DNA from: Amphiscolops sp. MND2022
Taxonomy: Eukaryota
Length of the DNA stretch: 64,000 bases
Assembly: GCA_964187785.1 (NCBI GenBank)
Contig: OZ076409.1
Span: 5,582,001 to 5,646,000 of the forward strand
Reading direction: 5' to 3'
The position numbers and the translations under genes were made by a program. This document shows positions 27,886 to 63,834 of this stretch, one piece after another. The notes under the pieces are model-generated. The model did not search any database and was not told the DNA's origin. It saw only the letters and a program-made list of their open reading frames with translations. Numbering within the stretch: the stretch's first letter is position 1; every line of letters begins with the position of its first letter.

Positions 27886-28175
27886 TCCCACCGGGTTTAT
27901 CGTATCAAGATACGTTTTAATGAAACGGATTAGAGGTTTGTTTAAATCAGTTGAGGTAGTTTTATAGTCTCTAGGAGAGTTGGTTTTAAGGTGTACAGGA
28001 TTGAGAGAAATTGTAAGAACAGAAAATTTTTCTTTTGTGAATTTGTATATTTTTGATATTTTTCATCAAGTTGTAGGGTATCAAGTTGTATTATTTTTTC
28101 CTTACGTGTGAGTTTCGGGCGAATATGTAATTGGTATCTAGAGTCCAGTTTAAAACGAACGGAGTGTGGTTGTGA

Positions 28176-28908: not shown

Positions 28909-28924
28909 TGGAGAACACATTTTA

Positions 28925-28941
28925 TGGCGACCACAGAGGGA
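28925..28941 (+). promoter_or_regulatory. Primer-binding site, tRNA-Arg-like
   Basis: TGGCGACCACAGAGGGA resembles the complement of the tRNA-Arg 3' end (...UCCCUUCGUGGUCGCCA type) and lies 16 nt from the LTR end. Confidence 0.75.
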
Positions 28942-32125: not shown

Positions 32126-32146
32126 GATAGAGAGCACCAGTCAATA

Positions 32147-35100
32147 ATGGAGGAAATAGAAGCCGTGCAGGCTGAATTGCGAACATCAACTGAGCGACAA
32201 GCGCAAGGACATGAAATTCAGGCCGCCCGAATGGATGCTATGGGCTATCGAATGGCCGAAATGAAAGACATGGTGGCCGAAAGAGAGGTGCGCATGGAAG
32301 CTCAAATGCAAGAGGTATGTTCACAGATACAAGCAATGGGCACTATGTTAAAAAATATCCAATCTCGACCCGCACCAGCGAGCAACACTATCAAAGAGTT
32401 GCTGCAAGACACTGACGTATCACTGCCAAAACCCATGAAAAGCGTCTCCCTCAAGCCAAAAGAGAGTGTGACGACTGCAACAAACCCATCTGGCTCTAAA
32501 CAGCACTTGGCGAGGTACGCGCCTTTGCCACAACCTCTGGTCTCAAATGGAGAGGCCGCATCAACCTCGACGAAATTTATCCCGTCTGCGGTATCAACAA
32601 AATATATTCCACGCACGACCAAAGCTCACAAGAAAGAACCAACGTGCGAGGTGATAACTATCGACACTTCAAGCATGGGTATCACCGGCCTGCGAGAGCC
32701 CACACGCACAAACGAGCTGACTGAAGTCACCAGCACCTTCCAAACAGCAAATGCAACTTTGGGAGAATCAGCTGCAGAATTCCAAACCGCGGACGATGGG
32801 TTGCCCCTGGGCAACCCATGCGCCAGCAGCACCCGACGCCGAGAAGTGACAATCCCCGAGAACACCGATGACTCTGTCAACTCAACGCGAGGCAGCAGTA
32901 TCCCGCCACCAGCTATCACTGAAGAAGCGCCTATATCACCGGAGCAACTCAGGTTTACCGAGGCAATATCCAAGGCCATGTCCAAGGAACTGGCGCCGCT
33001 AATTGCTAATCGAGATCAAACTAGGGTCCGCCCTACGGTGTACAAAGGCACTAAAGATGGTACTGTCGATGGATGGCTTCCAGTGATGAAGCGATTTCTA
33101 GAAAGGGTGCATGCAAAATCACCGAAGATCGACAAAGCCTGGGCTATCATCGACCACCTGGAAGGGGAGGCGAGAAATTATATGATCAACAAATCTGAAC
33201 CTGAACGAGACGAGCCCGACAAGGTATTCTCTCTCTTGGCCAGCAGGTTTGGAACCGGTGGAAACCGCATGCACGTCAGGCAAACCTTCATGTCTCGTGT
33301 CCAACAGGAAAAAGAGGATTGGATGCAATTCTTGGACGCATTGGAAGGTCTGCGCACCCAAGGTTTCCCAGACGAGCCTATCACTACACGTCGTTATGAA
33401 ATCCTGCAACGTTTTATAGATGGCGTCAATGACCCGACGCTGCGACAAGAGTTGGCCGTGGTGTACGCTGCGGAGACGTATTTGACTGAGCCACCAACTG
33501 TAGAATCCCTGAGATTCACCACGAGACAATTGCAACGGCATCGCCCAAACACGTCAAAACCTTACGACCCAAGGTATGCAATGAGATCGAGGCCTAATCC
33601 TTTCGTGCCAGGGAAATTGGTTCACCCGGCACCAGGCCTACCACAAAATGTGCTGCCTCCAAACCAAGGACAGCGAGAGGCAAAGCCCCAGATGGCCCCA
33701 CCAGGCCCTGCATCGGTAAAACAGGCTCCTGCACAGCAGCAACCAGCGAGAGTGATTCCCCAAGGAGCATGCTTCAACTGTGGACTATCGGGTCACTTTG
33801 CGAGGGAATGCCCACATCGAGACCTAGCAAAGAAACCCGCGGCTCGCGCTGCACCCGAAGAGCGAGTGAACCTGTGTGAGAACAATGTGGCCTCTGTATG
33901 TTCTGGCCCCGTATTCTGTGTTAAATGTGGCATGACCGAACACTCTGCATCACAATGCCAAAATGTTTCAGTACATGAGGATTTGGCCTACAGCCTCTGG
34001 GCTGAACAGCCATCTGCTTCTCAAACGATGAGTGACAATGAAATGGTACTCATGCTACGCCCTGCTGAAGCCGCTCACGTGGCGACGCCTCTTACCGTCA
34101 CATGTGGCAAAATCCAAATCCAGACGAACCCAGAGCCAACTACTTTTGATCCCCCGGGACGCACTATCATGTCTGCCCGACTACTGTTGGCGGTCGAGAG
34201 AGAAACCCGCCCAGAACTCACCATAGACGCTCCGATAGAAGAGATGACCGCAAACGAGAATTGCCGGCAACTGACTCTGCCCCAACCGGAGGAGTGGCAA
34301 GTGAAAGGTGTCACTTCGACGTATCATGCCTATTCTCCGATTCCAGTCAAAGTCTGCATAGTTGGTGTTGACATGCGTTTTGGCGCCACTATTATTACTG
34401 ATGCGTTTCCTCCTGGAATCTGCTTGGGACCGCAAGAGCTGCGCTGCTATAACATTGACGCTCAAGAACCAACTGGTGAAGCGAGAATCGATGAGCGTTC
34501 GTCGCTCGAGGTTTCATTCGTGGTTCCCGATGCTGCTCCCGTGCCATTACGTGGTCTAATAGACACTGGATCAGGAGTATCCATCCTCACCTTCTCAGCC
34601 TACAACCGAGTCGCCGTGCGCACTGGCACACTCTTACGACCTTATGGTATTGACTTATATGCCGCGAATGGGAAGACGATCAAAACTTTTGGTCTAGCGG
34701 AGAAAGTCAAATTCCAATTGGGAGGCTATGAATTGGAAACTAACTTCGTGGTAGTTGATGACGCTATGGGAGTGGAAGACTTCCTCCTGGGCAGAAACTT
34801 CCTAAGAGCTTATCAGGTCTTGGTAGACCTAACCGCGATGAAGGTCATTGTCCGAGCTCCCTCTGAACCGGTGTGGTACCATGCCCACGCGCAAGTAAGT
34901 AACGAATCGCTCAATTCGTCGGTAGCGATTGCACAGGACGTAGTGTTGCAACCTTTTGAACGCGCGATACTACGCGCTAGATTGCTTTCAGACAACTTAG
35001 AACCTTTCATGTTTCGAACCGTGCTAATCAATTTTCAAACACCTAACCGAATGTTAAAAAACGCCATCTTTTTAGAGGACACCGTGGCGACCGTGGGGGA

Positions 35101-38100
35101 AACTGGTTTCCTTTACGTCAGTTTAGGAAATCTCACCAGCAACGTACAGCGGATCAAAAAGGGCACTCTTTTAGGAACCGCGGTACCTGTGACGATGGTT
35201 CATAAAGCCATCCCCCAAATTGTCCCCGGACAATCAAATGAAACTCTGCAGTCAAATGCAAATTATGTTTGTAAAGTTTACGAACAGATGAACCTTGATT
35301 CTTCTTCTGAATATAGTTCTCCATCTGAATTTGAGTTTTTGTCCTCTACCGAACCGTCAGAACTAGGCTTGTCCGAGCGTGAAATAAAAAAACGAACCGA
35401 TCCGGCGCTAATGGCTCCGATACCGGGCCCGGAAGCACAACTCGACGAAGTGCGCGGTTTGTGGGGCTCGACCGCCAGCGACACGCTTAGTAAACGTTTG
35501 AACGAATTTGATGATTTGTTTATGAAATTCAAAGTCGACATTGGCAAATGTAAAATCGCTAAGCACCCGGTGGAAGTAGAGCCAGGGGCTATACCTCACG
35601 GTGAAGGTGCAAGACGAATGTCGCCTGACAAGGCAGAACGTGCTAACCAAGAAGTCCGTGACTTGCTAGCTTTGGGAATGATACAACCTTCCCTATCCCC
35701 TTGGGCGAGTGGAATTGTTATGGTCAAAAAGAAGAGTGGTGAATTGCGATTCTGTTGTGACTTTCGACCACCTAATGAAGTGACCATCAAAGACGCTTAT
35801 CCCTTGCCACGTATCGATGAGAGTCTATCCCGATTGGGCAAAGCCAAAATCTATACCAGTATTGACTTGGCATGGGCATTCTGGCAAATCCCTGTCCGAA
35901 AAGCCGATCGTCAAAAGACTGCCTTCGCTTGTGAACTTGGGTTATTTGAGTGGCGGCGTATGCCTTTTGGTATGTGTAACGCATCAGCAACATTTCAACG
36001 GGCAATAGCGCGAGCGCTACAAAGAATAGTGAACCGCGAAGGAAGTATGGTTATGGCCTATATCGATGACATTGTGATTGCTACCGAGACCATCGAGGAT
36101 CACATGGATAGACTACGCGAAGTATTGCAATGCCTGCGTGAGGCCGGCTTCAGAATGAGAGTCTCCAAGTGTGACTTTATGAAATCGGAGATCAAATATT
36201 TGGGCCGAGTTGTATCCGCAGATGGTATCAAGCCAGATCCAAAAGCTGTCGCCAAGCTGAAAGATTGGGATATCCCGCGAACCAAAACTGAATTGCAAAG
36301 TTTCTTGGGTTTTGCCAACTACTATCGGGATTTTATCCCATGGCATGCAAAGCTAGTTGCCCCTTTACATGCGATGACGGGCGCAGGCTCTCCATTTTTA
36401 TGGGGGGAGGAGCAGCAGCGAGCCTTTAACAGCATCAAAGTGGCACTAATGGAAGCCACTGCTCTGGCGCAACCCGACACTGAAGGCGAATTTGTTCTTG
36501 ACACCGATGCTAGTGGTGTAGCTATATCAGGTATTCTTCACCAATGGCAAGGACCACCTGAGAGTCACAAATTGCGACCGATTGTATTCGGAAGCAAAAA
36601 GTTAACCTCTACGCAAGCAAAGTATGGAGCCCCAAAACTGGAAATGTACGCTGCATACTATTTCATCTTGAAAAACCACAGCTATCTCTGTCCACGGAAA
36701 TTCACACTGAGAGTCGACAATCAGGCCCTATCCTGGCTAAAGACATATTCGATGGATCAGGCGATTATTGGTCGATGGATTATGGCTCTTGAAAAATATC
36801 ACTTCGGTATTGAGCACCGACCCAGAACGCAACATCGAAATGCTGATGGTCTTAGCAAACGAACAAATGACTATAAAAAACACGAAAAGCAATTAAAGGG
36901 TTTACCCGCAATTGCAGACCAATGGGATTTCCTATCACTAGAGGAATACAACAAACTCCCGCTAGCCCCATGGTTTGATGTCCACGGATGTGTGATACCA
37001 AATCACCCAGAATTGCCTGCACACTTGCAGAGGTTGGCTAGCCAAAGTTCACCCGAAACCACAGTTGCCGCTCCCACGCGAAGGAGCGGACAAAGCAAAC
37101 GAAGTGCGATCATGCGCGACGAAGCCATGAGAGCACCCCTACCTAGATTGCCAAAACCAGAACTGGCACTGCCTGCCGAACTTTATCCAGAGTATCCTGA
37201 GGATTGGTTGGAACTGACCGAGGAATATCAACGAGACTATTTGCTCCCCACGCATGCTGCTAACGTACCATCAAGAACCACTTATCCACTGACGGAAAAG
37301 CAAGCAACTAGCACTGCACCAGAGCACGTAAAACAAGCCGCGTTTGTGGTAAACAGCATATCGATGGAATTGCATGAACATGCTGACACAGTCCATGGGT
37401 TGAAAGATCTACTACTGGCACAAAACCGTGACGTCCACGTCTTGGCTATCAAGAAATTGGTAATGCAAGAGTCAATAGATCATGACATCTTTCCGGAAAA
37501 TGTACGTGCCTTTGCCAAAAACTACCACAAACAGAAGAAGAACCTTCTGCTGGTAAACGCGAACGGGGTTTTGTGTGTAAAGTACTCCAAAAGTCAAAAA
37601 GCTTTGCATGAACGCCCCTGCATGATAGTGATGCCCCAATTGTATCAGCATGAGATATTGTTCAAGGCCCACGACGCGATGGGACATCAGGGCATCGCGA
37701 AAGTCTTGGCCAGAATTCAAGAGCGCCACACTTGGCCAGGCATCCGCCGCACCATTGGACAATACGTCAGCCAATGTATCACTTGTCAACAAGTACGTGA
37801 CAAGCCTGGTGATGTACGCTTTCACTTGAAAAATATCCAAAGCGACTATTTTAACGAGCTAGTCCAATATGACCACATGAAAATTTGTCCCTCTGACGAT
37901 GGTAACACAGGGATCTTGGTTATTATTGATCATTTCTCTAAGCTCGCAGAAGCTGTGCCGTGCAACCACGATGAGTATGATGCAGCGACCACTTCAAAAT
38001 TGTTGTTGCAGAAATGGTTTGCCCGCCATGGAACGCCGACGAGAATGCAGTCAGACAATGCTCCCAACTTCACCGCGGCAGTATCTGCTGAGTTTATGAA

Positions 38101-39640
38101 AGCCGCCCAAGTGACCAAAGTAACCTCAACTGCTGGCCACCCCAAGACTCAAGGGTTGGTAGAGCGACAAAACCGAACGTTACTCACCCTACTGCGTGTA
38201 TTCTGCTCTAGACGAATGCGTGATTGGGACCAGTATTTAGATGAAGTCATGGGTGCATACAACTCCACACGTCATGCCACTACTGGGTTCTCCCCGTATA
38301 TGCTGACCAGAGGCATGGAAAAAGCTATACCCCTGACTTTCTTGTATCCCGAATTTGCAACTCAGTCATTCGAATCACACGAAGCCTATGTGGAACATGT
38401 GCTGGCTCGACAGCAAGAGATTCATGACTTAGTCCGTCGTAACACGCATCAAGCCCAGCAGCGACAAAAGTTGAAATACGACCGAGCAATTCGTGCTAAA
38501 GCCTATGAAGTGGGCGAACCTGTTTGGGTATTCTGCCGATACATTCCTCAAAAAGGATCTCCTAAATTGATGAGAGCCTGGCATGGTCCTCACAAAGTAG
38601 CACGAGTGCTACAAGAGGGACGCGTCTACATACTTGACACTGGTCAAAAAGTACATTTCGAACGATTGAAACCGCACCATGGTGGTCCAACAGAATGGGC
38701 AGCTGTTCCTGCGCATAACGGCGAGGTTGCTATCATCATGGACCCTCACCCAGAACAATCCCACGAGGAAGTGAGAGACGATGCTTCGCAACCTTCTTAT
38801 CGTGCGGAGGAACCAATTTCAGAAGCCAGTAATGCCTCTTTGCCTTCTCGACAAAGACATTGGATGGACACACGGTTGCGCACACGCATGCGCGCTGGTG
38901 GCAGCCGCCTACATTATCAACAATTTGACTATTCTTCGACTGAGTCTGACGACGAACGTTCTGATGTACTCCTGTCGAGTGTTCAGGCTAATCCCGATGA
39001 GAGTGCTATCTTGTCATCACATGTGGATGAACCTGCGCCTATTCCCGAAATACCAATATCACCACTGCCTGCTATGGAGGCTCTATTCTCAGAGAATGAA
39101 GCAGTGCCCGACGTCTTGGATATCGCCCCAAATCCTACTATCCACGCACCCACCAAAAGTGCCGGCACCTCTCTGACCGGTACATCCGCCCCATTATTGA
39201 CAAATCCATCTCTTACGGATATGTTGAGTAACTTTCCCATTTGGCCCCTAATCGATGACAATGTTCTCAATCCCACCTTAGACGACAACGGTGCTGAAGC
39301 ACCAATGACCAATGACGAAAAGGGATTTATTCCCCCTACGACAGTTCCCACCAACAACAACGCAGCTACTACCACGAAACTCTCCAATGCTCCTAGAGGG
39401 CATAGACCGCGAGGACGTCCGCCAGGCAGAGCGAGGCCGCGAGCCTCGCTGCCACGTGGCCACCAACAGAGAGGTGCTATTAGAGGCGCTCGCATAAGAG
39501 GCCGTCCCAGAGGAAGACCTCCTCGTACAACACACGCCAGACCTAACACCTCTACCCGTGTTCGTCGCACTCCATCTGTGGACACTGACTCTTCTGCCCC
39601 TAGCGCGGCGGTTACCTCAGATCAAGCAGCACCGCCATAA
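32147..39640 (+). CDS. Gag-Pol polyprotein of element D (capsid, two CCHC knuckles, protease, dUTPase-like region, RT, RNase H, integrase)
   Basis: CFNCGLSGHFAREC and CVKCGMTEHSASQC; LIDTGS (34562); PWASGIVMV, MPFG, YIDD (36059-36070); DTDAS; HDAMGH..CITC; YDH / SDNA / VERQN (DDE); WHGPHKV. Confidence 0.98.
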   Translation: MEEIEAVQAELRTSTERQAQGHEIQAARMDAMGYRMAEMKDMVAEREVRMEAQMQEVCSQIQAMGTMLKNIQSRPAPASNTIKELLQDTDVSLPKPMKSVSLKPKESVTTATNPSGSKQHLARYAPLPQPLVSNGEAASTSTKFIPSAVSTKYIPRTTKAHKKEPTCEVITIDTSSMGITGLREPTRTNELTEVTSTFQTANATLGESAAEFQTADDGLPLGNPCASSTRRREVTIPENTDDSVNSTRGSSIPPPAITEEAPISPEQLRFTEAISKAMSKELAPLIANRDQTRVRPTVYKGTKDGTVDGWLPVMKRFLERVHAKSPKIDKAWAIIDHLEGEARNYMINKSEPERDEPDKVFSLLASRFGTGGNRMHVRQTFMSRVQQEKEDWMQFLDALEGLRTQGFPDEPITTRRYEILQRFIDGVNDPTLRQELAVVYAAETYLTEPPTVESLRFTTRQLQRHRPNTSKPYDPRYAMRSRPNPFVPGKLVHPAPGLPQNVLPPNQGQREAKPQMAPPGPASVKQAPAQQQPARVIPQGACFNCGLSGHFARECPHRDLAKKPAARAAPEERVNLCENNVASVCSGPVFCVKCGMTEHSASQCQNVSVHEDLAYSLWAEQPSASQTMSDNEMVLMLRPAEAAHVATPLTVTCGKIQIQTNPEPTTFDPPGRTIMSARLLLAVERETRPELTIDAPIEEMTANENCRQLTLPQPEEWQVKGVTSTYHAYSPIPVKVCIVGVDMRFGATIITDAFPPGICLGPQELRCYNIDAQEPTGEARIDERSSLEVSFVVPDAAPVPLRGLIDTGSGVSILTFSAYNRVAVRTGTLLRPYGIDLYAANGKTIKTFGLAEKVKFQLGGYELETNFVVVDDAMGVEDFLLGRNFLRAYQVLVDLTAMKVIVRAPSEPVWYHAHAQVSNESLNSSVAIAQDVVLQPFERAILRARLLSDNLEPFMFRTVLINFQTPNRMLKNAIFLEDTVATVGETGFLYVSLGNLTSNVQRIKKGTLLGTAVPVTMVHKAIPQIVPGQSNETLQSNANYVCKVYEQMNLDSSSEYSSPSEFEFLSSTEPSELGLSEREIKKRTDPALMAPIPGPEAQLDEVRGLWGSTASDTLSKRLNEFDDLFMKFKVDIGKCKIAKHPVEVEPGAIPHGEGARRMSPDKAERANQEVRDLLALGMIQPSLSPWASGIVMVKKKSGELRFCCDFRPPNEVTIKDAYPLPRIDESLSRLGKAKIYTSIDLAWAFWQIPVRKADRQKTAFACELGLFEWRRMPFGMCNASATFQRAIARALQRIVNREGSMVMAYIDDIVIATETIEDHMDRLREVLQCLREAGFRMRVSKCDFMKSEIKYLGRVVSADGIKPDPKAVAKLKDWDIPRTKTELQSFLGFANYYRDFIPWHAKLVAPLHAMTGAGSPFLWGEEQQRAFNSIKVALMEATALAQPDTEGEFVLDTDASGVAISGILHQWQGPPESHKLRPIVFGSKKLTSTQAKYGAPKLEMYAAYYFILKNHSYLCPRKFTLRVDNQALSWLKTYSMDQAIIGRWIMALEKYHFGIEHRPRTQHRNADGLSKRTNDYKKHEKQLKGLPAIADQWDFLSLEEYNKLPLAPWFDVHGCVIPNHPELPAHLQRLASQSSPETTVAAPTRRSGQSKRSAIMRDEAMRAPLPRLPKPELALPAELYPEYPEDWLELTEEYQRDYLLPTHAANVPSRTTYPLTEKQATSTAPEHVKQAAFVVNSISMELHEHADTVHGLKDLLLAQNRDVHVLAIKKLVMQESIDHDIFPENVRAFAKNYHKQKKNLLLVNANGVLCVKYSKSQKALHERPCMIVMPQLYQHEILFKAHDAMGHQGIAKVLARIQERHTWPGIRRTIGQYVSQCITCQQVRDKPGDVRFHLKNIQSDYFNELVQYDHMKICPSDDGNTGILVIIDHFSKLAEAVPCNHDEYDAATTSKLLLQKWFARHGTPTRMQSDNAPNFTAAVSAEFMKAAQVTKVTSTAGHPKTQGLVERQNRTLLTLLRVFCSRRMRDWDQYLDEVMGAYNSTRHATTGFSPYMLTRGMEKAIPLTFLYPEFATQSFESHEAYVEHVLARQQEIHDLVRRNTHQAQQRQKLKYDRAIRAKAYEVGEPVWVFCRYIPQKGSPKLMRAWHGPHKVARVLQEGRVYILDTGQKVHFERLKPHHGGPTEWAAVPAHNGEVAIIMDPHPEQSHEEVRDDASQPSYRAEEPISEASNASLPSRQRHWMDTRLRTRMRAGGSRLHYQQFDYSSTESDDERSDVLLSSVQANPDESAILSSHVDEPAPIPEIPISPLPAMEALFSENEAVPDVLDIAPNPTIHAPTKSAGTSLTGTSAPLLTNPSLTDMLSNFPIWPLIDDNVLNPTLDDNGAEAPMTNDEKGFIPPTTVPTNNNAATTTKLSNAPRGHRPRGRPPGRARPRASLPRGHQQRGAIRGARIRGRPRGRPPRTTHARPNTSTRVRRTPSVDTDSSAPSAAVTSDQAAPP

Positions 39641-41047
39641 TCAACCAACGCTCGCTATGGCCTGCGACGCAATCGTATTCCCAGATATCGTTGCGGAACA
39701 TGTGGCCTACGAGACTGCGAATGTAACTACATGGTCCATGCGGGCTTCCCAATTAAACCCCAGGGAGTCCTGCTAGCACGTAAACAGGAGAAAACGCTTC
39801 CAAGCAGCACGATTGACCGTTTGGTAATTCGAGCTGAGAAGACTTATACTGGGCTACAACGCAGCGACACTCCATATCCTGTGAACTATATCCTATCCAA
39901 AATGAAAGATTCTACGATAGCAAAGGCCCCGTGCCCAAGATTCAAGGAGTGGACCTATGATCTTATTTGTTTGGATTTCACATTACCTATCACTGTTCCC
40001 CCCTTGCCTACAAATTTTGCTTTTGGTCCTTTCAACTATGAACGAGAACCTATCCAAATGGTACGCTGTATCCCTGCTGACCTTTTGTATGACAAGTACA
40101 ACGTCACCGCAAAACCAGGAGACGTTTATCAGTCTGCAACCAACTGGTGGCTACTAATTACGGCCAAACAAGTGTCCGACCTGGTTCATCCCAATAACTT
40201 GAGCACCTGTCTGGAGAGTTTGCGGACAATGGCCTCTCCTGATAGAATCACTTGTTTCCACACCATAGACCTGTATCGTGGTAAAATTAAGTTTGAATGG
40301 TGGCTGGAACTTATCATAGCAGTCTTATCGAGCTTTTCACGAATCCGATTCCTGGACGATTGGACGCACTCATTTTCTAGTCCTGTATCACTCCAATCAG
40401 CCCTACACGCACTGGATACATGGTCCAGGGCTAACATTGATAACCAATCGTTGCCGCGATCTGTGTGGCAAGACTTGGGCGCCATTAAAGGCCTCCTTCC
40501 GAACACATGTGACGATGCTCTCTCCAATGACCCCGGACGAGAGTTAATATACCATGGAGCCGTGAGACCTCAATTGGTTGACTATGTGCAGTATGCCAAT
40601 ACGGACTTCCTGCAAACTCCCCATCATATTGTTTTATGTTGTCCCGCAAACCTTGAGACTAATTCTGCCGCTCTTCGTTACGTCATTCGTGAGCATGGTG
40701 CAGATGCAATCTTTCAACTTCTACCGGAGGTTGGCAATATTGTGACGCTACCCACATCTTTGATAGACGGCCATCCTCAGACTATCCACCTTTTAATCAC
40801 ACGAGCTACACCTCGCTGCCCTATGCTCGCTGATATTCTCTTGGGATGTCTTGATCATTTGAAAACGTTACTCGAGCGCTTAGAGGCGATAGAAGTACAC
40901 TTTGCCATCATTGATCCTGAGCGCCCAATACGTAATCTTTTCGACTTTTATACCTGTTTGATGGACGTATTCGCTGACACGCCCCTGACCGTCGTTCTTC
41001 ACGATCGCGTTTACGTATCTATCGCAAGCGTCGCTAGCTTTCCGTAG
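39641..41047 (+). CDS. In-frame continuation of Pol: RYGLR motif, Cys cluster and two degenerate macrodomain-like repeats (TARG1/Poa1p type)
   Basis: The frame stays open from the TAA at 39638-39640 (STNARYGLRRNRIPRYRCGTCGLRDCECNY) into the ORF at 39731. Two repeats show the pattern C.padl...pG.v....llIT......L..CL..L...idxxr...vf. Confidence 0.75.
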   Translation, partial: STNARYGLRRNRIPRYRCGTCGLRDCECNYMVHAGFPIKPQGVLLARKQEKTLPSSTIDRLVIRAEKTYTGLQRSDTPYPVNYILSKMKDSTIAKAPCPRFKEWTYDLICLDFTLPITVPPLPTNFAFGPFNYEREPIQMVRCIPADLLYDKYNVTAKPGDVYQSATNWWLLITAKQVSDLVHPNNLSTCLESLRTMASPDRITCFHTIDLYRGKIKFEWWLELIIAVLSSFSRIRFLDDWTHSFSSPVSLQSALHALDTWSRANIDNQSLPRSVWQDLGAIKGLLPNTCDDALSNDPGRELIYHGAVRPQLVDYVQYANTDFLQTPHHIVLCCPANLETNSAALRYVIREHGADAIFQLLPEVGNIVTLPTSLIDGHPQTIHLLITRATPRCPMLADILLGCLDHLKTLLERLEAIEVHFAIIDPERPIRNLFDFYTCLMDVFADTPLTVVLHDRVYVSIASVASFP

Positions 41048-41269
41048 AACTTTTTGTTTTTCCTTTCGCTCTTTTTTTTTCTTTTGTCCGCTCGATTAAG
41101 TTTAGTGAATCGACACGGAGTTTACTTGAAACAAATACGTTACCTTTTCTTTTAATGTTAATTTGTGATATCCTATTACTTCCCCTGGTATTACCCTTAA
41201 AGTGACCTATGGTGTTACCCTACTATCAAGTGTGCTACAATCGACCTGCACTCTTTCAGAGTTTCCGTC

Positions 41270-44200
41270 ATGAACCAAAGTGACGATGAAAGCAACTACG
41301 TCCCTCCAAGATCTTCAGATGACTCTCCTGCCTTGGGGCACCGCGTTTACGACACTGCGCGTGTCCAGCGTACCCCACAAATTGCTTTCATTCGAGACAG
41401 ACTCGACCAAGGTCTGTCGCCAGCTACAGTAGCCGGGGTGGCGGCGATCATAGCCCAGATGGAGTCACAAGTGCAAGCCCCTATGCTGACGATATCTATC
41501 ACTTCAGGCTTTCCTGGGTTCCAGCGATCTATGACGTTCCAAGATGGAGTGTGGTACGGCCATGATCTCACACATCACTTTACGGATGATCGTGCAGCGA
41601 TCTCATACAGTCCTGCGAATGGCGGAGTCCATCAGACCAGATCTCTACAGATCCCTTCTTGCCCGCCTCCACCTCCACCGCCACCTCCTGTATCAATGCC
41701 ACAAACAGTAGTGCGTGCAAGCACTTCTGCTCCTGCAGTACCTAACTTGTCCAATCAACCAATGGCAGAACAAGCAGTTATCTCAGCACTGCAAGCAGTA
41801 GCTATCAACCCTAATTACGCTGATTTCATGCGATCCATGGAGCAGTGTTGGCCTGAACTACGCCAAATTGCTCTGCCTACTGTTACTATTCGCAACGAAA
41901 ACGCCACTTTGAACCAAACAAGTTAAGATGCTATCACTATTCCTCACGTCAATCCTCAGTCTGAACAGCCAGGGCACTCCCGCACCGTGACTGTAGAGCG
42001 CAGTCGTTCGCCTTCCCGCTCTTCTCAAAAGGGGGGAGGAGAGAGCCGCCCTGCCTCCAGAAAACGCAATGACCGTTCTCCAACAAGAATGAGTGCTCAA
42101 CAACCACTAACTGCTCGTGACAGCCCCTCGAGCAAGCCACCACCCGACAAAAAGATCTCCAACGAGAAGGCCACAACCTCCAAGACGCCAAACCAAACAA
42201 AATCAAAAGTGTCGGAAGCATCCGTGCTTCCCTCACCCCAGCCACAACCAAACGCAACAGGCGAACAACAAGGACTGCCGCAGCCACCACCCACGCAGTC
42301 TACAACACGCGAGTCGCTGGCTCAACGAGCGGTTCCTAAGACTTCTACATCAAGACAGCCACAAACGGAGCAAACTGTGGTTTATCAAGGCACCCCTGAA
42401 CCTCAGCGAACTGTCAAGGACATAATGGGTGATTACCCAGGATTGAAGGTAACCAACAGTGGTCCAACTGGAACCCCACTCCGCAAACAGGCAATTCAAC
42501 ACCCAACTAAGAGGACCTTTACAAAGCAACCGACGTACCTGAGTCCAATGCAAAACACGAAGGGCAAGCTGATCACCAAGGACTCCCGACGTATCTGGGA
42601 ATCGGCAGTTATTGTATCACCCGAATGGCTGTTTGAAAAGAACATGTGTCCTCCGAATGACGAAGAGCATGCGAAATTGAAGAAGGCGAAAGTATCTGTA
42701 TTCATGAATCGTCCAATTCGCCCCGACCACACCCCTACTAATGAGCCGCCATGGCTAGGGAAGGCAATGAATATTCTGCCAAACGTAGAAGACAACTACT
42801 TGGACGCCCTCAACATTGACCTTCGTGGGCAATTCGCTGCCGATACTTCCTCAACGCTGGAGAGACCTTCGAGATCAACCCGCGGTACGCCCGTGACCTC
42901 GAAGCCCAGCTACCAATGCCAAAAGAAAGGTTGCAGCGTGCGCGCTTCGCCTTACTTGTAGACTCGACCTTCCTCAAAAATATCCCTATTGACAATGTGC
43001 TGTCAGACGTGATGGTTTTCACTCTACCGCTGTCACGTATCCCCGAGATGGCTGAAGTGTTGGTCACCATGTTTGACCCCGAGATGACGGGGACCTTCAA
43101 AGAGCCACCCCCACGCAGAGTGATCATCAGTAACGTTTTCGATCACATGGCCTGTGAAGGACTAATGGCCCAGATCGCGAACGTTGAAATCATAAATCCA
43201 ACTCCAGCACAGCGAGCAACAGTACGCAACGCAGTACTGAATGTGGCCCGAGCCATGGAAAAAGCCCAAAATATCCTAAAGAATAAACTCAACGTGCCAG
43301 TCTTGTTTGTAACACCCCCAGGTTTCTGCCAGTGGCATCCCGCCTTGCAGAGATTTATCTATATGGTAACAGAAATTTGCAAATGTAGAGAAATAGACTT
43401 TGCGATCTGCGCGCCCAATATGCGGATCAGCTCCGACGACTTGCGTCCCTCCTGGCTTTCCTACATGGGGTACGTTGCCTCAGTGTCTAAAGTGCTACAG
43501 TCAGTGGAAAAGACAGGGAACGCGCAGCTGACAATCGACGATGCCATCTATTTTGATCACGGCACTCGTATGGGCTTGTTAGTATTCAGCAACAACGGAG
43601 AAAGGCGAGTCCCAGAACCTAGCACGGCTGAATGTCAGGCAATCCGCCTGAATAACTGGATGGAGCGCGCGCGCTCCTCCGGTGGAAAGACTTGCATTAA
43701 AACTGATCTTGCGGAAGTCACCGCCATAATGAGCAAAATCCCCAGCGACCGAGAAGTGGAACGAGCCATCCCGCGAGTTCAATTTGCCCAGGACCTCACT
43801 ATTGACCAACTATCAGTGGGAATGAGGTATATCGCTGCAAAATTGACGAGCGAGACTCAGGCTGAAATCCAAGCCTTCAGCAGCACCTACGACGCTTGGT
43901 ACCAGCGGCTGCAAACTACCACCGTAGCAGACATTGCAAAAGAACTTGGGATGTCAACCGACCAATTTGCCATCTGTTTGGGATTGGGTTGGAGTCCCGA
44001 TGTTATTCGAGTTGAGTTCGGCTTGGACGAACACTGGTTGATCGGAATCAGCAAGATTATCGGCACCATGCAAGTAAACGAACTCTTTGCACTGATACTC
44101 ACCTTCGGGCAGAAACGCTTCGTAGCTGGCCCAATGATGATATTGACCGACCTGGTTACTGAGTGTAATCTGGAATGGCTATTTTCGTATTTAGTGATTG

Positions 44201-45625
44201 CGCGAGGCAATATCTCAGGCCTCACCGCCTTAGCCAAGCTGCTACAACGAAAAGACGCTCAGGATTATCCCGCTCACCTGGAGCGCATGACAAGTTCGTT
44301 ATATCACTGGATATACTGCAGTCTGGTCTTTGCCTCGGGACTTTTCGTGGGCGTAGATAAGCACCAACCATTATATGACGGACGTCAGCTGGTGACCGAG
44401 GTAGCTGGATTTCTGACACCTAACCAGCTGGCAGATTTCACTTTGGCTGAAGTCGAAGACCTTGTACCGGTGTTAGCACCCGTGCTAACTCCGATATTTG
44501 GCCCAACCGGGATACTTCGCTATCCCACCAAGCCTCTGCGACTCGCCTGGGAAACACCAACAGTCTCCATCCTGACTTTTCTGAAGAATGTAAAACCGTA
44601 CAACTATCAGCAGATGCTTGAACGCGGGTTGTTCCATGTATACCACCATAAAGAACGAAACGCAGCAGGACGAAAACCTGGCCGGCATTCTCAAAGCCCG
44701 GACAAAGAAGGCGTGCCCTTTACCTCGCGAATACGGCCCGGTGAATTGGTACAATTCGCCCCTAGATCACCATGGAATCCCACAGCGATTCAATTGGAGT
44801 TTCGCACACCTCAGGAAGTACGTGACCGAATGCGTACAAGCCATGGGCGGTCACACAAACCAGGGGTATAATTTTCAGATGATCAAGCTTCCAGCCAGGT
44901 ACTGGCGAGGACCCATCGGCTATGCCCGGGCTAAGCCAATCAGCATGGTTGAGAAAGGCTTTAATGAGCAGTACGCCTATCGCGATCACTACAAACTAGG
45001 CGTGTGGATGTCAAGGACCCTGGAGGAACGCCAAGGGCGCCTAAAAGGCTTGATCATCCCTCCACAGACAATGCCTGTTTGGAATCCAGTGGCGAGGGTC
45101 ACTATGGGAAGCGACATGCCAGCGGAGACCTGCTACCATGTCATGGAACTGCTGAGTGATCCCCTCGGACCCGAATGGGAAGCCTCCAGGCAAATTATAG
45201 AACATGAAAACAGGGACAACTGGTCCAGAGCCTGCGGGCTCTGGGGCCGACCTGATCTACGCCCGAAACTCAGTGCCAAGCAGAAACGACCCATTGCCAC
45301 CCGCAATAGACCGCTAGATCTACCACACCTGTTTAATGCCAGTAGATTGGATGTGCAGATCCCAACCTCCACGTCGACCACAAGTTCTGCCAATGTTAGC
45401 GGCTCAGCCAATGCAGCGCAAGAACATTCGCCAGAAGTCTCAACTCCCGTAGCTGCGGAAAATGGCCCTAGTGGCTCAAACACGACTCCCAGGACCCATG
45501 AAACTGCCAGCGCCGAACCAAGGCCAGTCCTGCGAGAAGGAAATGTGCGAAGAGGATCCCTGTCCGAACCACAACCGAAAGCCGACGTCTCCCCCAGAGC
45601 GCGTCAATTCTCCGCCACCCAGTAA
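41270..45625 (+). pseudogene. Accessory ORF of element D (about 1450 aa reconstructed; one in-frame stop and two frameshifts) with an SGNH-hydrolase-like domain
   Basis: 41270-41926 and 41987-42961 share a frame across one TAA; frameshifts near 42820-42845 and about 44630 join 42916-44871 and 44618-45625. SGNH-like blocks: FALLVDS, VIISNVFDH, VLFVTPP, SDDLRPSWLSY. Confidence 0.75.
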
Positions 45626-46621: not shown

Positions 46622-46635
46622 CCCCGGGGAGTGTA
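46622..46635 (+). promoter_or_regulatory. PPT-like tract of element D
   Basis: CCCCGGGGAGTGTA lies directly before the 3' LTR. Confidence 0.7.
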
Positions 46636-47368
46636 TGTAGCGATTACCTATCGAGTACACGATTTCGAAAGTTTCGATGAAACTTTCGTTCAAGGGACTA
46701 TATCCCCTCTACTGAAAAGTCATATTCCGCTGGACGGCAGCGTGTCTTTATTCAAGTACCTGCCCACAAAATTGAAGAGAATTTGAGCAAAAGACTCCGG
46801 TCAGACCCCAACCGAACGAGAAGACTGCAGAAAAACACGGCCGCTGTCAGAAAAAGACTCAAATTTCTGTCAAAACGGACTGAACTTTGTTTTAGCCAGT
46901 GCTTTCTTCAGCGAAGCGTTACAAGACGCTGTGATTACCGAAATTGAGTCAATTGGCTTGACCAAGCATCCGTGCTTGTGTCCCCGGCTAATTGCTGCCT
47001 CAAAAGTGCTAATTATGTAGTAATTTTCGTATTTTCTTGTTGTAACAGCTCGTGAGCTACTTATTTCGATTTCCTGTGTAACTTCTAAAAAACTTGATTT
47101 TCCTTTCCACCACTTGCATTTTTCAAAGGCTATCTAAGCGTTGGTTCCGAAGAAAAAGCGTAATGCGCGCTACTGTTAGCAATTACAGACTGGATCAGGC
47201 CGGCGAGCACTTCTTAAGAAGCGGAATCCTCCTCTGACGGGACATTTCTTACCCGAAGGAGGCAAAATGGACTCATGGCCATGGGCGCCTGTCCCGGGCA
47301 AATACCCATGCCATGTGTTCCTCCTGCTCTTATGGTTACGGCGACAATGGTGAGAGCTTGTCGTTACA
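46636..47368 (+). repeat. 3' LTR of element D
   Basis: Direct repeat of 28176-28908. Confidence 0.98.
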
Positions 47369-48789
47369 TGATATTCATATGGAGTTGGGGTGAAGTTTGA
47401 AAAGGTATAATGATTTGAACAATTATAGTTTTTACATCATCAATTTTTTATTGTTTGTTTTCCGTGGGGGTTTTGAAAAGTTTGTTTAAGGAGGCATTGA
47501 TTGACATGTGAAGACGTGGTGAGAAAAAGTGATGAGTAGCAGAAAAAGAGCAAAAATGAAAAAGAACGGCCCTGTTGACAAACATGAAGATTCATGAAAG
47601 ACGAAGAATTCTTAGTTATCGTGTCAACGTAAGCGTTTTCCTTACGCGCGTTTTTTCGTGAAAACACAATTAATGAGTTTGAGAAGCTTCTGCGGCCAGA
47701 AGGCGGCCTAAACGAAATCAAAAAATTCAAAAAACAAGTCAAGTATCAGTCAATATGTGTTCACAATTCGATCACATGAAGCGGGTAAACGAGCGAAAAA
47801 GAATTGAGTCAGTCAGGAGTTGTCATTAAAAATATCATTTGATTAAAAATTAAACGCAGTGGTAAGTAATTTTTATTATGTGAACTAGGAGAAGTAAAAA
47901 AGATTTGGGAAAACTGTTAAAACCGAAGTTATTGAAATGTAAGGTAAAGATTTTTGTGAGAATCAGGTGAAAAGTGGAGTTGCGGTTTTTAAAAAATGTT
48001 GGGAAATGGAGTCAAAATTTTAAAAATTAGCAAACGCACCACAAGAACAGTTGAAATAGACTATACCGATTATGCTAAGAGAGAAAACATATCAAATATT
48101 TTGTAGAATTGAAATTAGAGGTGTAGAAAGTTGAAATTTAGAGCATCGAAAAACAAATTTTTACTGATTATGTAAACAAAAACGTTACTACAATATTTTA
48201 GATTGTACGGAAAGAGAGCGTAGTCACGAAGAGTAAAAAGGGAACATTCGGGGTGTGAAAATGGAGTGATTGTTAAATTATTTTGAGTTAAATCAAAGAA
48301 GCGAGGACATATTTTTATGAAAAATATAGGGGAATTGTGCATAATTTTACTTAATCAACCTCTTTAAGGGATGTAATCATAGGAGGAAATCCGTTGAGCG
48401 AGTCACGAAATAGGGGGGCGTAAGAGATTCGATGCTAACCGGTATTAGCGGCGGATTTGACGCGGGGAAGGGGAAATGAATGGGAATTACAATCATTGTG
48501 GGTTAGATAAGAACATTTTTGTGGGAACCTTTACGAAAAGGTTCTGGGAAATATTGAAAATTGAAATCTATCGAAAGCTGGAGGAGGGAGAAATTAAATG
48601 TGAAAAATTGGAGGAGAGTGAAGGTTGAAGATGAATTAGGAAGAAGCAGGAATTGTAGGAGTTTAAAGGTCCTATAGTTTTCTTAAGAAAGTCATTAGTT
48701 TGTGAAGTGGACAGAGTGAGGGATTGCATATCCTTGTTATGGAGATGAAGGAGATGTTGATGGTTGCGGTAGGTGTCAAAAAATGGTTA

Positions 48790-49400
48790 GGGATTACAAA
48801 CGGATCAGTATTAGGAGAAAGTTCAATATGTAGGCGATGAGAACATAGGAGGATGATAATGGTGGTACAACAGCAGTAGGAGGATGAAATGAAGAATCAG
48901 TAGATGGAAGAACATGTTTTGGAAAAGCAATAATAATTTCATCATTAATATTGTGTTTGGTGGGAAAATACTTATAATATTGTTTTTCTAGAATGAAAAA
49001 AGAGAGTTTAGCAATTACGAATTTCAGTTCGGCAATGGAGTTATGTTTGTGGACAAGGGATGTATAAAGAACACGAGAGTGATCATCAACGGGCGTTTCG
49101 ACTAGTTTAGTCATTTTTGGAAAGAAATTTGAGACATTTTTGGGGATGTGTGCAGGTAAAAGAAAATCATCATTGAGATTGAGTGCTGCCTGGGGAATGA
49201 AAAGAGAACGAGTAGGATCATGGTAAGGAGAGATAATTTAATATTGTTTAACTGGATCATAGTTATGGATAGTGCCAATTGTGAAGAGGTAGTTTACAGA
49301 ATAGTGAGATTGGTATGAGAGTAGAGAAGTGAATTTATGATTTTGAAATGTGAAGTTTTGGGGATGTTTTTGTTCACGAAAAAGTTTTTAGGTTTGATGG
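48790..49400 (-). pseudogene. Post-env accessory ORF remnant of element C, also present in element A (about 16090-16420)
   Basis: IGTIHNYDPVKQY..YHDPTRSL...DDHSRVLYTSLVHKHNSIAELKFVIAKL versus element A IGKIRSYDPVKQ..YREPTR...DDHARSLYVSLEHKH.LIAQLNFIVARL. Confidence 0.65.
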
Positions 49401-50999
49401 TGAAGGTTGTGACACAAGGAGCAGAGGTGATATCGTTTGCGTTAGTATTAAGGTCATGCTGTGTTGGTTTAGGAAAGTTGAATTGAAACTGGAAGAAACA
49501 AATTCAGTCATTATGATAGAAGGAGAGTTGTTCAAGATTTTTGGAGGCATATGCAACATAGTGATCAAAGTTGCTATCTTGTGGGAAGCGAAATTTATAA
49601 GTGGTAGGATTCATGTAAAAAGAAGAGAGATTAGCTTCAAAAATGGGGTGAGTGCATTGAAGTTCATCGGTCATAGTATTGGATTGAGAAGGCTGTTTGA
49701 CTGGGTTTAAGATAGGATGAAGAAGACCAGAATCAAGGAAGACAGGATCTTCGAATATGTTAGATTTTTTCATGGTGGGAACGGTATAAGTGGCATGGTC
49801 AATAGTTAATTGAAGACACTTATGTGGAGGAGTAGGTGAGTGACGAGTTTTAGGAGTAGAAGTGGTAAGGTGAGTATTTACAATTGGAGTAGTGGAAGAG
49901 GAAGGTTTAATTTCAGTAGTGGTTTCAGGAGTTGTGGCGACTTCGATATTGATCGCGTCAGTGTTATGAGGGAGTTCAGGTGTACCAGATTTAGGAGACA
50001 AAGGAGGAGAGAATGAAGCAATACTATAAAGGAGTTCTTCATTACATACAGAGCAGGACATTTTGACCAAAGTTATTGAGTTATTACTGAGTATATGCGA
50101 AGTTGTTTTTTGAAATGTTCAAAGAGTTAGATATTTTATATTAGATATAGTATAGGGCAGAAATGTGCGCTGTGTGGAACGAACGGTCTGAGATATAGAG
50201 GGTAGGTGATTTAGAGATTACAGATGCAGGAAGACAAATTAATTGTAAAAAGAATTTTGACGAAAGTAAAATGAATTTGGAAGCAAGATTAAACCAAGAA
50301 AAGAAGAGATTGGGAGATGGCGACTGATCAATGAGAAGAAAAAAAAGAGAATGAATGGTGGAGTGAAGAAGAGAGATCGGTAATTAATCCGGGTAAAATG
50401 ATCCAGGGGAAAGCGACATGAGAATAAAAATTTAGCAGGGCTTTCCGGTGGAGTGAATATGCAATTAACAGATGCTAATGTGATGTCCTTAAATTTCATA
50501 GGTGGTGGAGTAGGAGGATAAATTTTAGTTGATTGCCATACATTGCGGACATGGGAATTATCAGAGGAGTTGTCAATATTGGTATCTTCAGGGGGAATGG
50601 AATTGTGTGAATGAGGAGGAGAAGACAAAGAAGGTAATTGAAAGTGTCGAGGTTAAAACTTAGTAGGTGGATTAGTATGTAAACTATAATAAGGAGGGAG
50701 GATGGTGAAGTATTGTCAGTTAATGAAGAAGTGGTATTAGAAGGATATGGTGGAAAAATATTAAGTGAGGAGGATTTCTTAGGCGAGATTAAAATTTTTA
50801 TTTTTGAGATTTAAAATTTTAGATTTGATGTTAGGTTTGTATTTATGAGATTTCATAGTTTTGTTTTTTGTTTTATGGTGTGAAAGAGACGGGGTGTCAG
50901 AAGCATTGGAGGCGGAGTTAGAATCAGGTGGTTTTGTCATAGCAGTCATCATTGTTTTGGTTACTGTTCCAAAACGCCGTAACCAAACCAAGAAACAAG

Positions 51000-53050
51000 A
51001 GAGTCTGGTTTTTCAAGAATTTACTTAACAGTAAAGGAGCAGTATAAACTATGATCACTAAGCTTGAGTGAACCATTCAGGTGAAAAGAAAGGAGTTAAT
51101 TTTACCATATAGTCATGGAGACCGATTCGGAGTGATTTATAAGGATTATTTGCGATAATTTCAGACGATTGTTTACTCATCAATTCATAACTAATACCTT
51201 TACCTAAAAGTTGTAATGTGTTGTCAGAGTGTTCCAAAAATAAATTTCGATTCCAAAAGTCTTTAAGTTCTTTTTAGAATATAAACCTGCATCTTGGGCA
51301 GTAGAGGTGTTTGGGAAAATAGCAGTTTGGTTTTGTTTAGTTTCGAATAATTGAGGAGTGTCTTTTTAATAGATTGCGGATTTAGGACAAAAAATTGATC
51401 AGGTTCAAGAGCACAAACATTTTGGGGGTTAGTTTTGCATGAGAATTGATTTGCATTATTGAATGTTTGACGTGTAATTGGGTCAACATTCATAACATTG
51501 TCAAGATGAGAGATCGGGATTTTATAATAAAATTGTTCAGCTATGTATAAAGCGGTGAGGACAATCATAGAGCCAGAGAGAGGTGGTGAGGACAATCAGA
51601 GAGCCAGGCAGTAGGACTTTCAGTAAATAGAAAATTACTACGATTTTGGGTTTGGAGAAAACCAGCAAATTGTAAATTCTAACAGACATTGCGATGATGG
51701 TCATAAGTTGGGTTCTTTCAACTTCACAAACAGTGTGAAGAAACTTCAATTTGGCAACGGACATTGTTTTGAAGACGCGAATAATAGAATAGTCAGTTTT
51801 AGTGAATATGTGAGCTTCATATTCAAAAGTGGCGAAATTGTTAGAGGAGTTCAGGGCAGGTAAAAAGAGTTTCTTTTGAGTATGTACGAGTTTACGAGAA
51901 TTGAGTTGAGTAGAGAGTTTGGTATATTGTTCAACTTCAAGGAGTTGAAGAGGATTACCAATATGCATATTGAACCCTTCTTCATATGTAATAAAGAGTT
52001 CAGGATATTGATTAGTATACAATGGTGTGGGCTTATTACAAAACGTTTTACTTTCGGGGAAGAGTCGGGTTCGAGAATTAGAGTCAGGGTAAGGAATTTG
52101 AGATAAAATATGAGATTTATTTTTGATAGAGAAGTGTTCAAATTCAAGCCAATAACGGTTGTTCAGTTTAGACATACGTCCATTAAAGGAAAGGATGGAG
52201 AAAGTTAAACAACGATCTTCGGGGAACCAAGCAATTGTGAACGGGGTTAAAATGGTAGGTTTGCAAAAACCATCAGCATAGAGACAAGGTAAACTATGAC
52301 CATGATAGAATAATTTGTTATCTTCATCGTCATATGTTGATTCAATTTCACGAACGATTAAAGACCAACTTTCTTTTTTGATTATTCATTCATAGCGATT
52401 CCAACAAACAACTGTTTCTTTAAGTATTGAAGTTAAAATAAGTTGAGAGTTAGTTATCAAGCAGAAGCACCATAATGAAATGTGTTAGGTTTAGTTATTC
52501 GAAAAAGAGGTTGTTCAGTTTCAAGAAGGCGTTGTGTTTGAAGATCAACAATAAAGGTAAAGGAGTTACTGTAAACAAAAGCGTTAAGTTGAGGAATATC
52601 AGTACCGTTTAGATGACGGATAGCATGTTTGCATTCCGTGGGGTCTAAAATACGGGGGCGTTTAATAGAATTTTGTTGGTAGTCAAAACGATCATGGCGG
52701 CGATATTTGTAATCAGACTGGGCACAAACAATTTTTTCTCGTTTAACATAAACTTCACATGTCCAAGTTTTGAGGCGTTTAGCTTTAGCGCGAACAAAAA
52801 CGTTAGCAATAGCACGAGTACTTTCAAATGATGAAGGGTCTTGAGCACAAGGTTGTACTCTGGTTAAATTGAACTGACGGAGGTTGTGTTGTTTAGAACA
52901 ATCATAGTGAGATACTAGGAGGTCAGAGATATGGGGATCATTAGGTTCTACTATGTCAGTAGAGGGGTCAAGTGAGAGAATGAGGAGAAAAATATTTGAG
53001 GAGGAAAAGAAAAAGAATTGAGTGTTTGAAAGAGGAAGTCATGAGAGAAA
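51000..53050 (-). pseudogene. env-like glycoprotein, class III fusion protein (herpes gB / chuvirus G-like), frameshifted
   Basis: Hydrophobic leader, then SHYDCSKQHNLRQFNLTRVQPC, TCEVYVKREKIVC, LHTVCEVERTQLMTIIAMS, AWL(S/Y)DCPH and KIPI...VDPITRQTF...FSC...PQNV. Located downstream of integrase. Confidence 0.7.
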
Positions 53051-58900: not shown

Positions 58901-58907
58901 AGAGTGA

Positions 58908-59850: not shown

Positions 59851-59919
59851 GTAGCGGGAGTGATAGCGTTAGCGTGACTATTTGACTTTTGAGAACATGA
59901 GGAGATATTTGGGTGATAC

Positions 59920-63832: not shown

Positions 63833-63834
63833 GT

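Follow-up and report, generated by a model that had tools for sequence, protein, structure and literature searches.

The locus and its carrier element

The subject of this analysis is ORF3, an accessory gene that lies in the env position of a Ty3/Gypsy long terminal repeat (LTR) retrotransposon in the genome of Amphiscolops sp. MND2022 (assembly GCA_964187785.1, 1.07 Gb). We analysed a 64,000-nucleotide stretch of contig OZ076409.1 (positions 5,582,001 to 5,646,000, forward strand), which we call the window and to which all coordinates refer. The element that encloses the gene is young, is 19.2 kb long and has LTRs of 740 nt. These LTRs, a zinc knuckle in gag and, after it, the order of protease, reverse transcriptase (RT), RNase H and integrase assign the element to the Ty3/Gypsy group (Metaviridae). 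Its main features are the following.

28172-28910, + strand: 5′ LTR, a 740-nt direct repeat with 98.8% identity to 46631-47370
31121-41047, + strand: gag-pol frame that encodes a zinc knuckle, an aspartic protease, RT, RNase H and integrase, followed by a C-terminal extension of 468 amino acids (aa)
41250-41259, + strand: pyrimidine tract closed by an AG, 10 nt ahead of the start codon of ORF3
41270-45625, + strand: ORF3 accessory gene (1456 aa where open), interrupted in the window copy
46631-47370, + strand: 3′ LTR, the partner of the 5′ LTR repeat

ORF3 follows pol, which ends at 41047, at a distance of 222 nt and precedes the 3′ LTR, which begins at 46631; it runs from an ATG at 41270 to a stop codon at 45623-45625. 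In the window, it is spread over four open reading frames (ORFs; 41201-41926, 41927-42961, 42820-44871 and 44594-45625). A first-pass annotation, made from the window's letters, had joined these four into a single hidden gene of about 1450 aa, sitting where env would be in an LTR element that lacks it, and had explained the breaks by one in-frame TAA and two single-base frameshifts. Lesions were called by aligning the window copy to a natural open copy (locus L002), which gave three.

41924-41926, + strand: lesion 1, an in-frame TAA in place of a sense codon of the open copy
42838-42840, + strand: lesion 2, a 1-base deletion near 42839, relative to the open copy
44633-44635, + strand: lesion 3, a 14-base deletion near 44634, relative to the open copy

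The TAA and the 1-base loss thus stand as described, while the second shift proves to be a 14-base deletion with the same net effect on the frame. Our sample of this family (family 1) consists of 30 loci, namely the window's own and 29 others at 98-99% identity, drawn from 34 scored matches and 1,413 first-look candidates. A single open frame of 1476-1480 codons is carried by 9 of the 30 loci, and one more has a frame of 1473 codons. This count is far above chance, and the alignment of copies, which the annotation had suggested as a check for a continuous ORF, thereby bears out the merging of the four ORFs into one gene. Its product, counted from the first ATG, has 1,456 residues. The absence of env is likewise confirmed, in that the element contains no env-like ORF and ORF3 matches no glycoprotein or fusion-protein family in Pfam.

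Pfam matches in the gag-pol frame are zf-CCHC, RVT_1 (1.9e-34), RT_RNaseH_2, Integrase_H2C2 and rve. Two stops that are private to the window copy interrupt this frame, at 32123-32125 (a sense codon in 9/9 other copies) and at 39638-39640 (a sense codon in 3/3 other copies); in uninterrupted copies, gag-pol is thus expected to form a single frame of about 3,308 codons (31121-41047). For the 468-residue extension of Pol that follows the integrase (39641-41047), there is no Pfam or PDB sequence match. This extension is an unexplained domain itself, and its final 150 residues resemble a small alpha/beta domain by eye. As to other parts of the element, a TGG-initiated stretch, TGGCGACCACAGAGGG (28911-28950), 16 nt past the 5′ LTR, is found at the position expected of a primer-binding site, and the flanks of the element show no clean 4-5-bp target-site duplication.

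Conservation of ORF3 and selection

Within this one genome, ORF3 is retained by at least three diverged sister families, at roughly 80% and 40% protein identity. The 80%-identity family has a 1527-codon open frame in 8/39 scored places. In the 42%-identity family, 17/33 scored places have no stop, and one place is 100% identical to the protein P0007. A search with a 25%-identity relative uncovered further sets in the genome, with open frames of 1430-1451 codons. Families bearing ORF3 are very abundant, with 1,413 to 6,255 first-look candidates.

Over 1125 aligned codons, families 1 (L002) and 2 (L031) share 81% aa identity, and their first, second and third codon positions differ by 17.2%, 7.6% and 53.1%, respectively, so that third positions differ seven times as often as second positions. 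The Nei-Gojobori dN/dS ratio is about 0.04, a value from which, with dS saturated, only the statement ‘far below 1’ is safe; a ratio below 1 was another of the checks that the annotation had proposed. All four regions of ORF3 that the truncated L031 copy covers show this pattern of constraint, the disordered stretch included. The constraint equals that on the C-terminal extension of Pol, where the same two families have 82% aa identity and differ by 15%, 7.8% and 45% at the three codon positions. The non-coding DNA 3′ of ORF3, on the other hand, has only four alignable patches, of 22-51 nt. The codon-position pattern between families points to strong purifying selection, and we consider it close to certain that ORF3 is a real gene under selection.

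Relatives of ORF3 are also found in protein databases. A word-indexed search returned 16 of them, with identities of 97%, 84% and 57% for three and of 39-46% for the remainder; none has a name or a Pfam domain, and in a cluster look-up every member is an unnamed ENA protein. An exhaustive profile search of 1.84 billion representatives yielded 609 proteins at E ≤ 0.001 (401 at 1e-10 and 134 at 1e-30), which, among the best 150 of the 609, are mostly short pieces. The search of shorter proteins gave 140 matches, and the best 120 of these 140 are all unnamed and have no Pfam domains. Among longer proteins (2549-5000 aa; 1936 candidates), no fused form was found at E ≤ 0.001, which is weak evidence. 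One cluster member of 1,187 residues, P0198, is 25% identical to ORF3 over 679 residues (E 2e-48), and the place closest to it in this genome is only 27-30% identical. The lack of a close copy of P0198 here indicates that the ORF3 family exists outside this assembly too.

If ORF3 were instead a chance or captured ORF that decays neutrally, one could point to the variation within family 1, where singletons comprise 254 nonsynonymous and 131 synonymous changes plus 10 stops (shared variants: 25 and 12), and to the fact that merely 9/30 loci are open. However, both are expected after insertion. Because nearly all of the variation within the family is decay that follows insertion, and is neutral, it is uninformative on selection in the active lineage. 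What decides the matter is the comparison between families, in which the sevenfold excess of third- over second-position differences refutes neutral decay. Moreover, the protein is still recognizable in P0198, whereas the flanking non-coding DNA is unalignable. We therefore leave next to no probability to a neutrally decaying ORF; ORF3 is neither an env gene nor decaying debris.

Architecture and the SGNH-like domain

The order of parts in ORF3 is an N-terminal region, a basic stretch of about 345 residues, an alpha/beta domain, a helical domain, one or two hydrophobic segments, a Cys/Trp-rich region and a Ser-rich tail. The following parts were placed on the window.

41270-41659, + strand: conserved N-terminal region, residues 1-130, which aligns across families
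41660-42694, + strand: Pro/Ser/Thr/Gln-rich, net basic region, residues 131-475, delimited by composition and opening with poly-Pro
42940-43533, + strand: predicted SGNH-like alpha/beta domain, residues 558-755, from an AlphaFold2 (AF2) model, fold searches and conservation
43798-44340, + strand: all-helical domain, residues 844-1024, confidently predicted
44299-44517, + strand: two conserved hydrophobic segments, residues 1011-1029 and 1065-1083, from Kyte-Doolittle hydropathy

Between families 1 and 2, the N-terminal region has 84% aa identity, with 15%, 4.7% and 59% differences at the three codon positions. Residues 131-475 (P 14%, S 10%, T 10%; K+R 12.5% vs D+E 7.8%) align with many gaps and are probably disordered, yet they are still constrained, as second positions differ by 11% and third positions by 54%. 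The annotation had described a Pro/Ser/Gln-rich, disordered N-terminus with poly-Pro, the lack of a visible signal peptide and a helical region of unknown type, and each of these descriptions agrees with our results. The poly-Pro run lies at 41660-41692. The N-terminus is hydrophilic, and Kyte-Doolittle peaks of at least 1.4 occur solely at residues 1011-1083. Fold searches with the helical domain (844-1024) gave no match, and a language-model atlas gave no usable match for residues 500-1340; this helical half, which has no recognizable relative, may be a new fold.

The 19-residue Kyte-Doolittle means in family 1 are 1.54 for residues 1011-1029 and 1.73 for residues 1065-1083, and the second segment reaches 2.11-2.28 in family 3. 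By their hydropathy, both segments are possible membrane-inserting helices. The first lies inside a confident helix of the globular domain and, on the model, may simply belong to its core, while the second could enter a membrane. At the other end of the protein, the Ser-rich tail (about 45540-45620), otherwise variable, closes with a sequence that the families have in common, R-R-G-S-L-S … R-A-R-x-x-S-A-(T)-Q, which to our eyes resembles a basophilic kinase site.

To the region around 42946-43500, the annotation had assigned a globular domain with an SGNH identity. Two overlapping parts of ORF3 were folded with AF2, using family alignments. The model of residues 476-830 has a mean predicted local distance difference test score (pLDDT) of 67.9, and all 10-residue block means are at least 74 across residues 576-755. 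Its strands alternate with helices as in an alpha/beta sandwich, and the domain model has the three-layer alpha/beta/alpha fold with a five-stranded parallel sheet that characterizes SGNH proteins. A Foldseek search of this model against PDB gave no match at E ≤ 0.001, and its rows of higher probability (0.8-0.96) are PAF acetylhydrolase, TAP and GDSL-like lipases. In a fold search of 48,161 chains, 41 of the top 50 are esterase or SGNH-type by title, including 12 whose titles literally contain GDSL or SGNH; 7 titles are uninformative, and 2 matches are plainly other enzymes (methylaspartate ammonia-lyase and a phosphatase-domain protein). Several of the untitled or oddly titled matches are presumably SGNH domains as well. 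Judging from the model, the domain at residues 558-755 probably has an SGNH-like fold. The annotation's globular domain is thus recovered, at 42940-43533, and its SGNH identity finds support in the predicted fold but not in sequence comparison, as explained below.

Conservation at the positions of interest was counted in a 79-row alignment that includes many pseudogene fragments.

D565: 34/37, in the block I-like D-S-T
S566 (codon 42964-42966, + strand): 32/37, in the block I-like D-S-T
T567: 35/37, in the block I-like D-S-T
P587: 43/48, block II position
L588: 42/48, block II position in the hhalign register
S589 (codon 43033-43035, + strand): 37/48, alternative candidate for the nucleophile
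N622 (codon 43132-43134, + strand): 43/47, block III-like Asn
D625 and H626 (codons 43141-43146, + strand): 43/46 each
G685: 45/49
D724: 32/53, less well conserved
R726 (codon 43444-43446, + strand): 44/55 (then C4, S2, P1), block V His position
P727: 46/55

The motifs in which the annotation had seen SGNH blocks I, III and V, with Ser kept and His replaced by Arg (FALLVDS, VIISNVFDH, VLFVTPP, CREIDF and SDDLRPSWLSY), are all present in the window. The positions assigned to the blocks are indeed conserved, and in block I the nucleophile may be S566 or S589. Block I reads V-D-S-T, with its Gly replaced. At block II there is no conserved Gly: the register that hhalign favours places P587-L588 there, and Gly is absent in either register. 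N622 comes immediately after the third strand, although its surroundings read (A/S)-N-x-x-D-H instead of G-x-N-D. At block V (DxxH), Arg occupies the His position in either register, as the annotation had it, and His is outside the four commonest residues; three residues before R726, the alignment has mostly Gly (19/53) and no conserved Asp. The distant homologue P0198 keeps D-S, N622, D625, PPG and R726, and has Asp at H626. We call the domain SGNH-like rather than a member of SGNH because it lacks the block II Gly, the block V His and a profile match.

Several results weigh against an SGNH-like binding module. Pfam searches with the window pieces, 79 family members and 8 full-length or long homologues gave no Lipase_GDSL-type match, even with E values up to 10 allowed. 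The 79 members that make up the domain alignment matched 19 families, each through a single member; the best E among these matches is 0.026, and none of the families is an esterase family, while the same library does detect canonical GDSL ORFs elsewhere in this genome. In sequence and profile searches of PDB, the core profile found only bL20 (E 0.41), the 79-row profile found nothing and P0198 found nothing below E 0.3. Aligned by hhalign to one family of the genome's own GDSL ORFs, the domain reached a probability of 0.1%, and with five more diverse GDSL ORFs added to the template 0.55% (E 0.11); the real score was attained by 1/60 column-shuffled templates and exceeded by the reversed one (18.8 vs 17.6). 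The pairing is insignificant but colinear over 162 columns; in it, D-S pairs with GDS, PP with the PP of block IV and D-L-R-P with D-x-x-H-P. Thus, hhalign lends no support to SGNH homology on sequence grounds. The nearest clusters in the language-model atlas are VWA, with scores of 0.75-0.78 that lie under the atlas's own threshold of 0.9 and count as leads only. The D-S-T strand has a pLDDT below 50, and the block I register is therefore ambiguous; most structural alignments, with this strand trimmed, begin at model residue 103 vs target residue 1, and on the model S589 rather than S566 could be at the nucleophile position. Finally, the near-invariance of D625-H626 offers a possible alternative acid-base pair, so that the domain may be active.

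These results could alternatively mean that the alpha/beta domain is not derived from SGNH at all, but is a generic three-layer sandwich, VWA-like or lineage-specific, in which the block-like motifs are coincidental. However, no VWA or integrin I-domain title appears in the top 50 of the 48,161 chains, where esterase and SGNH-type titles prevail; nor is there a Pfam VWA match for the family members and homologues. The colinearity of the hhalign pairing, though insignificant, argues in the same direction, and the atlas scores do not rise above leads. We consider a fold unrelated to SGNH unlikely.

Known systems and possible roles of ORF3

An SGNH domain in an LTR element is less unusual than the first-pass annotation had implied: Vesta LTR elements of bdelloid rotifers carry a GDSL esterase/lipase as ORF3 that HHpred recognizes and whose invariant S, G, N and H are intact (Rodriguez, Kenefick & Arkhipova 2017, PMC5408684). 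The authors propose there that a GDSL ORF3 may aid passage across host membranes or may have auxiliary roles (PMC5408684), and a review also lists the giant retroelements of rotifers as carriers of GDSL ORFs (PMC6431247). LTR elements with an ORF3 of SGNH type are therefore already known, and the ORF3 described here is a variant with neither a sequence match nor the block V His. The two are alike in being separate ORFs downstream of pol inside Gypsy-like LTRs, in the place of env and with an SGNH-type domain, and in having no signal peptide or clear env features. They differ in that our ORF3 has no sequence-level match, has Arg for the block V His and lacks the block II Gly; moreover, its SGNH-like part makes up only about 200 of 1,456 residues and is joined to disordered and large helical regions. 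No large, sequence-orphan, His-less SGNH-like ORF3 was found in open-access full text.

Long interspersed nuclear elements (LINEs) provide a second comparison. The esterase of ZfL2-1 ORF1p is active and binds phospholipids and liposomes (Schneider et al. 2013, PMC3905857), and for the SGNH domain of ORF1p in CR1/L2/RTEX-type elements, a role in targeting the ribonucleoprotein (RNP) to lipids or membranes has been proposed in the same paper (PMC3905857). ORF3 resembles ZfL2-1 ORF1p as a retroelement-encoded SGNH-type domain. The two differ in position, however, since ORF3 is downstream of pol in an LTR element and ORF1 is upstream of pol in a LINE.

This genome also contains many intronless canonical GDSL ORFs (e.g. 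L032-L037 and L052-L056), with 39 PF13472 matches, 31 of them over the cut-off and several in near-identical multi-copy sets. These are probably the ORF1 esterases of CR1/L2/RTE-type LINEs, in which case the genome holds both canonical and degenerate SGNH modules of retroelements. Unlike ORF3, they have a Pfam match and keep the canonical residues of four blocks, namely Ser in I (as GDS, GSS or TDS), Gly in II, Asn in III and His in V. Block by block, they have L-G-D-S-I-T where ORF3 has L-V-D-S-T-F (block I), PP where it has V-T-P-P-G (block IV) and D-G-(I/V)-H-P or D-D-L-H where it has D-D-L-R-P (block V), and the spacing between blocks I and II is similarly short in both. Among host proteins, the OSK domain of Drosophila Oskar binds RNA and lacks the catalytic triad. 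ORF3 has no sequence similarity to OSK (PDB 5a4a), and the host-gene context of the latter is unrelated.

With the env genes of errantiviruses and retroviruses and with the fusogen-like sORF2 proteins of the MDG1 group (bioRxiv 10.1101/2025.03.14.642691), ORF3 shares its position between pol and the 3′ LTR and possibly a separate, spliced message. It differs from them in having no signal peptide and no glycoprotein or fusion family match, and in being 1,456 aa long rather than a short transmembrane protein. With regard to such a message, the AG of the pyrimidine tract is a putative 3′ splice site, and it is possible that it serves a subgenomic ORF3 mRNA as is the case for env genes. In one copy per family, such a tract with its AG lies 10-13 nt ahead of the start codon, at 10 nt in families 1 and 2 and at 12 nt in family 3. 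The indication is weak, since a motif this short carries little information and the homology of families 1 and 2 at this place keeps the three cases from being independent. A splice donor at 32121/32122, which would join gag in frame to ORF3, was rejected: the donor-like sequence was created by a mutation private to the window copy, and 9/9 other copies differ.

The reading that we favour, although we give it somewhat less than an even chance, is that ORF3 is a functional third gene that encodes an SGNH-like binding or scaffolding protein, which would help the element's particles and would probably be expressed from an mRNA of its own. The SGNH-like domain, with D-S-T and the Asn kept, would act as a module that binds or scaffolds lipid, membrane or RNA. 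The basic disordered arm, the hydrophobic segment and the large helical body could allow it to anchor particles or RNPs at membranes or to accompany them. The protein would thereby help particles to assemble, to traffic or to leave the cell, and it would probably be translated from its own, possibly spliced, mRNA. The absence of the block II Gly and the Arg in place of the block V His make such a module preferable to a classical serine esterase, and by analogy with known SGNH proteins we tentatively regard a non-catalytic role in binding lipid, membrane or RNA as possible.

A different explanation of the same residues is that ORF3 is an active but rewired hydrolase or acyltransferase, in which Ser566 (or Ser589) would be the nucleophile, Asn622 would contribute the oxyanion hole and Asp625-His626 would replace the Asp-His of block V, and which would modify lipids or glycans as particles exit or enter cells. 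The conservation of D625, H626, S566 and N622 in the alignment fits this proposal. It also fits that the bdelloid GDSL ORF3s and the LINE ORF1p esterases keep their catalytic residues and that the ZfL2-1 esterase is active (PMC5408684, PMC3905857). However, the proposed His626 is Asp in P0198, and the block II Gly is absent, and we find a rewired enzyme distinctly unlikely.

ORF3 might also be directed at the host, as an antagonist of silencing or restriction or as a regulator of the element's expression, with the SGNH-like fold as a mere scaffold. Indirectly, a large multi-domain protein with long disordered regions and a helical domain without a fold match would suit such a role, as would the great abundance of the families that carry the gene, and accessory ORFs of other LTR elements vary in role (Cer1 CERV, PMC10309623; sORF2, bioRxiv 10.1101/2025.03.14.642691). 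Since the sequence indicates no specific host pathway and contains no Pfam domain, we consider this explanation rather unlikely.

Finally, ORF3 could be given a more elaborate history, in which a Gypsy lineage captured an SGNH esterase of the LINE type, rewired it (retaining Ser and Asn, exchanging His for Arg and gaining a new Asp-His pair next to block III) and fused it to a novel helical domain that inserts into membranes, for envelope-independent membrane attachment or cell-to-cell transfer of capsids. We judge this scenario improbable. If it were true, ORF3 would be a new class of retroelement accessory protein, and the very large copy numbers would be explained.

It is an open question how LTR retrotransposons that lack env get into the germline, and likewise what purpose their additional ORFs serve. 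In the present case, a very abundant and recently active Gypsy group keeps a gene of 1,456 residues under constraint as strong as that on pol, and its degenerate SGNH-like module is of the kind found in LINE ORF1 proteins, rotifer LTR elements and Oskar. Binding of lipid or RNA by the module, if it occurs, would mean that a retroelement has once more recruited this fold independently, and would provide a tractable protein for tests of the membrane step that has been proposed for retrotransposition.

Outside the carrier element, the window includes remains of other elements. On the minus strand at 6850-11800 lies a third, degraded element of LTR type, whose ORF at 10008-10631 matches RT_RNaseH_2 (E 4e-23) and the end of RVT_1. 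At 49500-62000, also on the minus strand, lies a second, degraded retroelement with RVT_1 fragments at 57298-57816 (E 2.6e-6, below the cut-off). Its ORF at 52460-53038 has a weak match to a Monjiviricetes viral fusion glycoprotein (E 1.8e-4, 20 bits vs a cut-off of 27), and this retroelement may be env-bearing. A run of 200 N at 58908-59107 is an assembly gap or a masked stretch. The AT-rich flanks at 12000-24000 and 48000-64000 (GC 33-38%) show strong and opposite strand asymmetry, with a GC skew of -0.19 to -0.41 at 12-24 kb and of +0.35 to +0.55 at 48-64 kb; for AT, the skew changes from +0.23 (1-6 kb) to between -0.27 and -0.39 (6-12 kb). These skews may reflect old elements in opposite orientations or strand-biased deamination.

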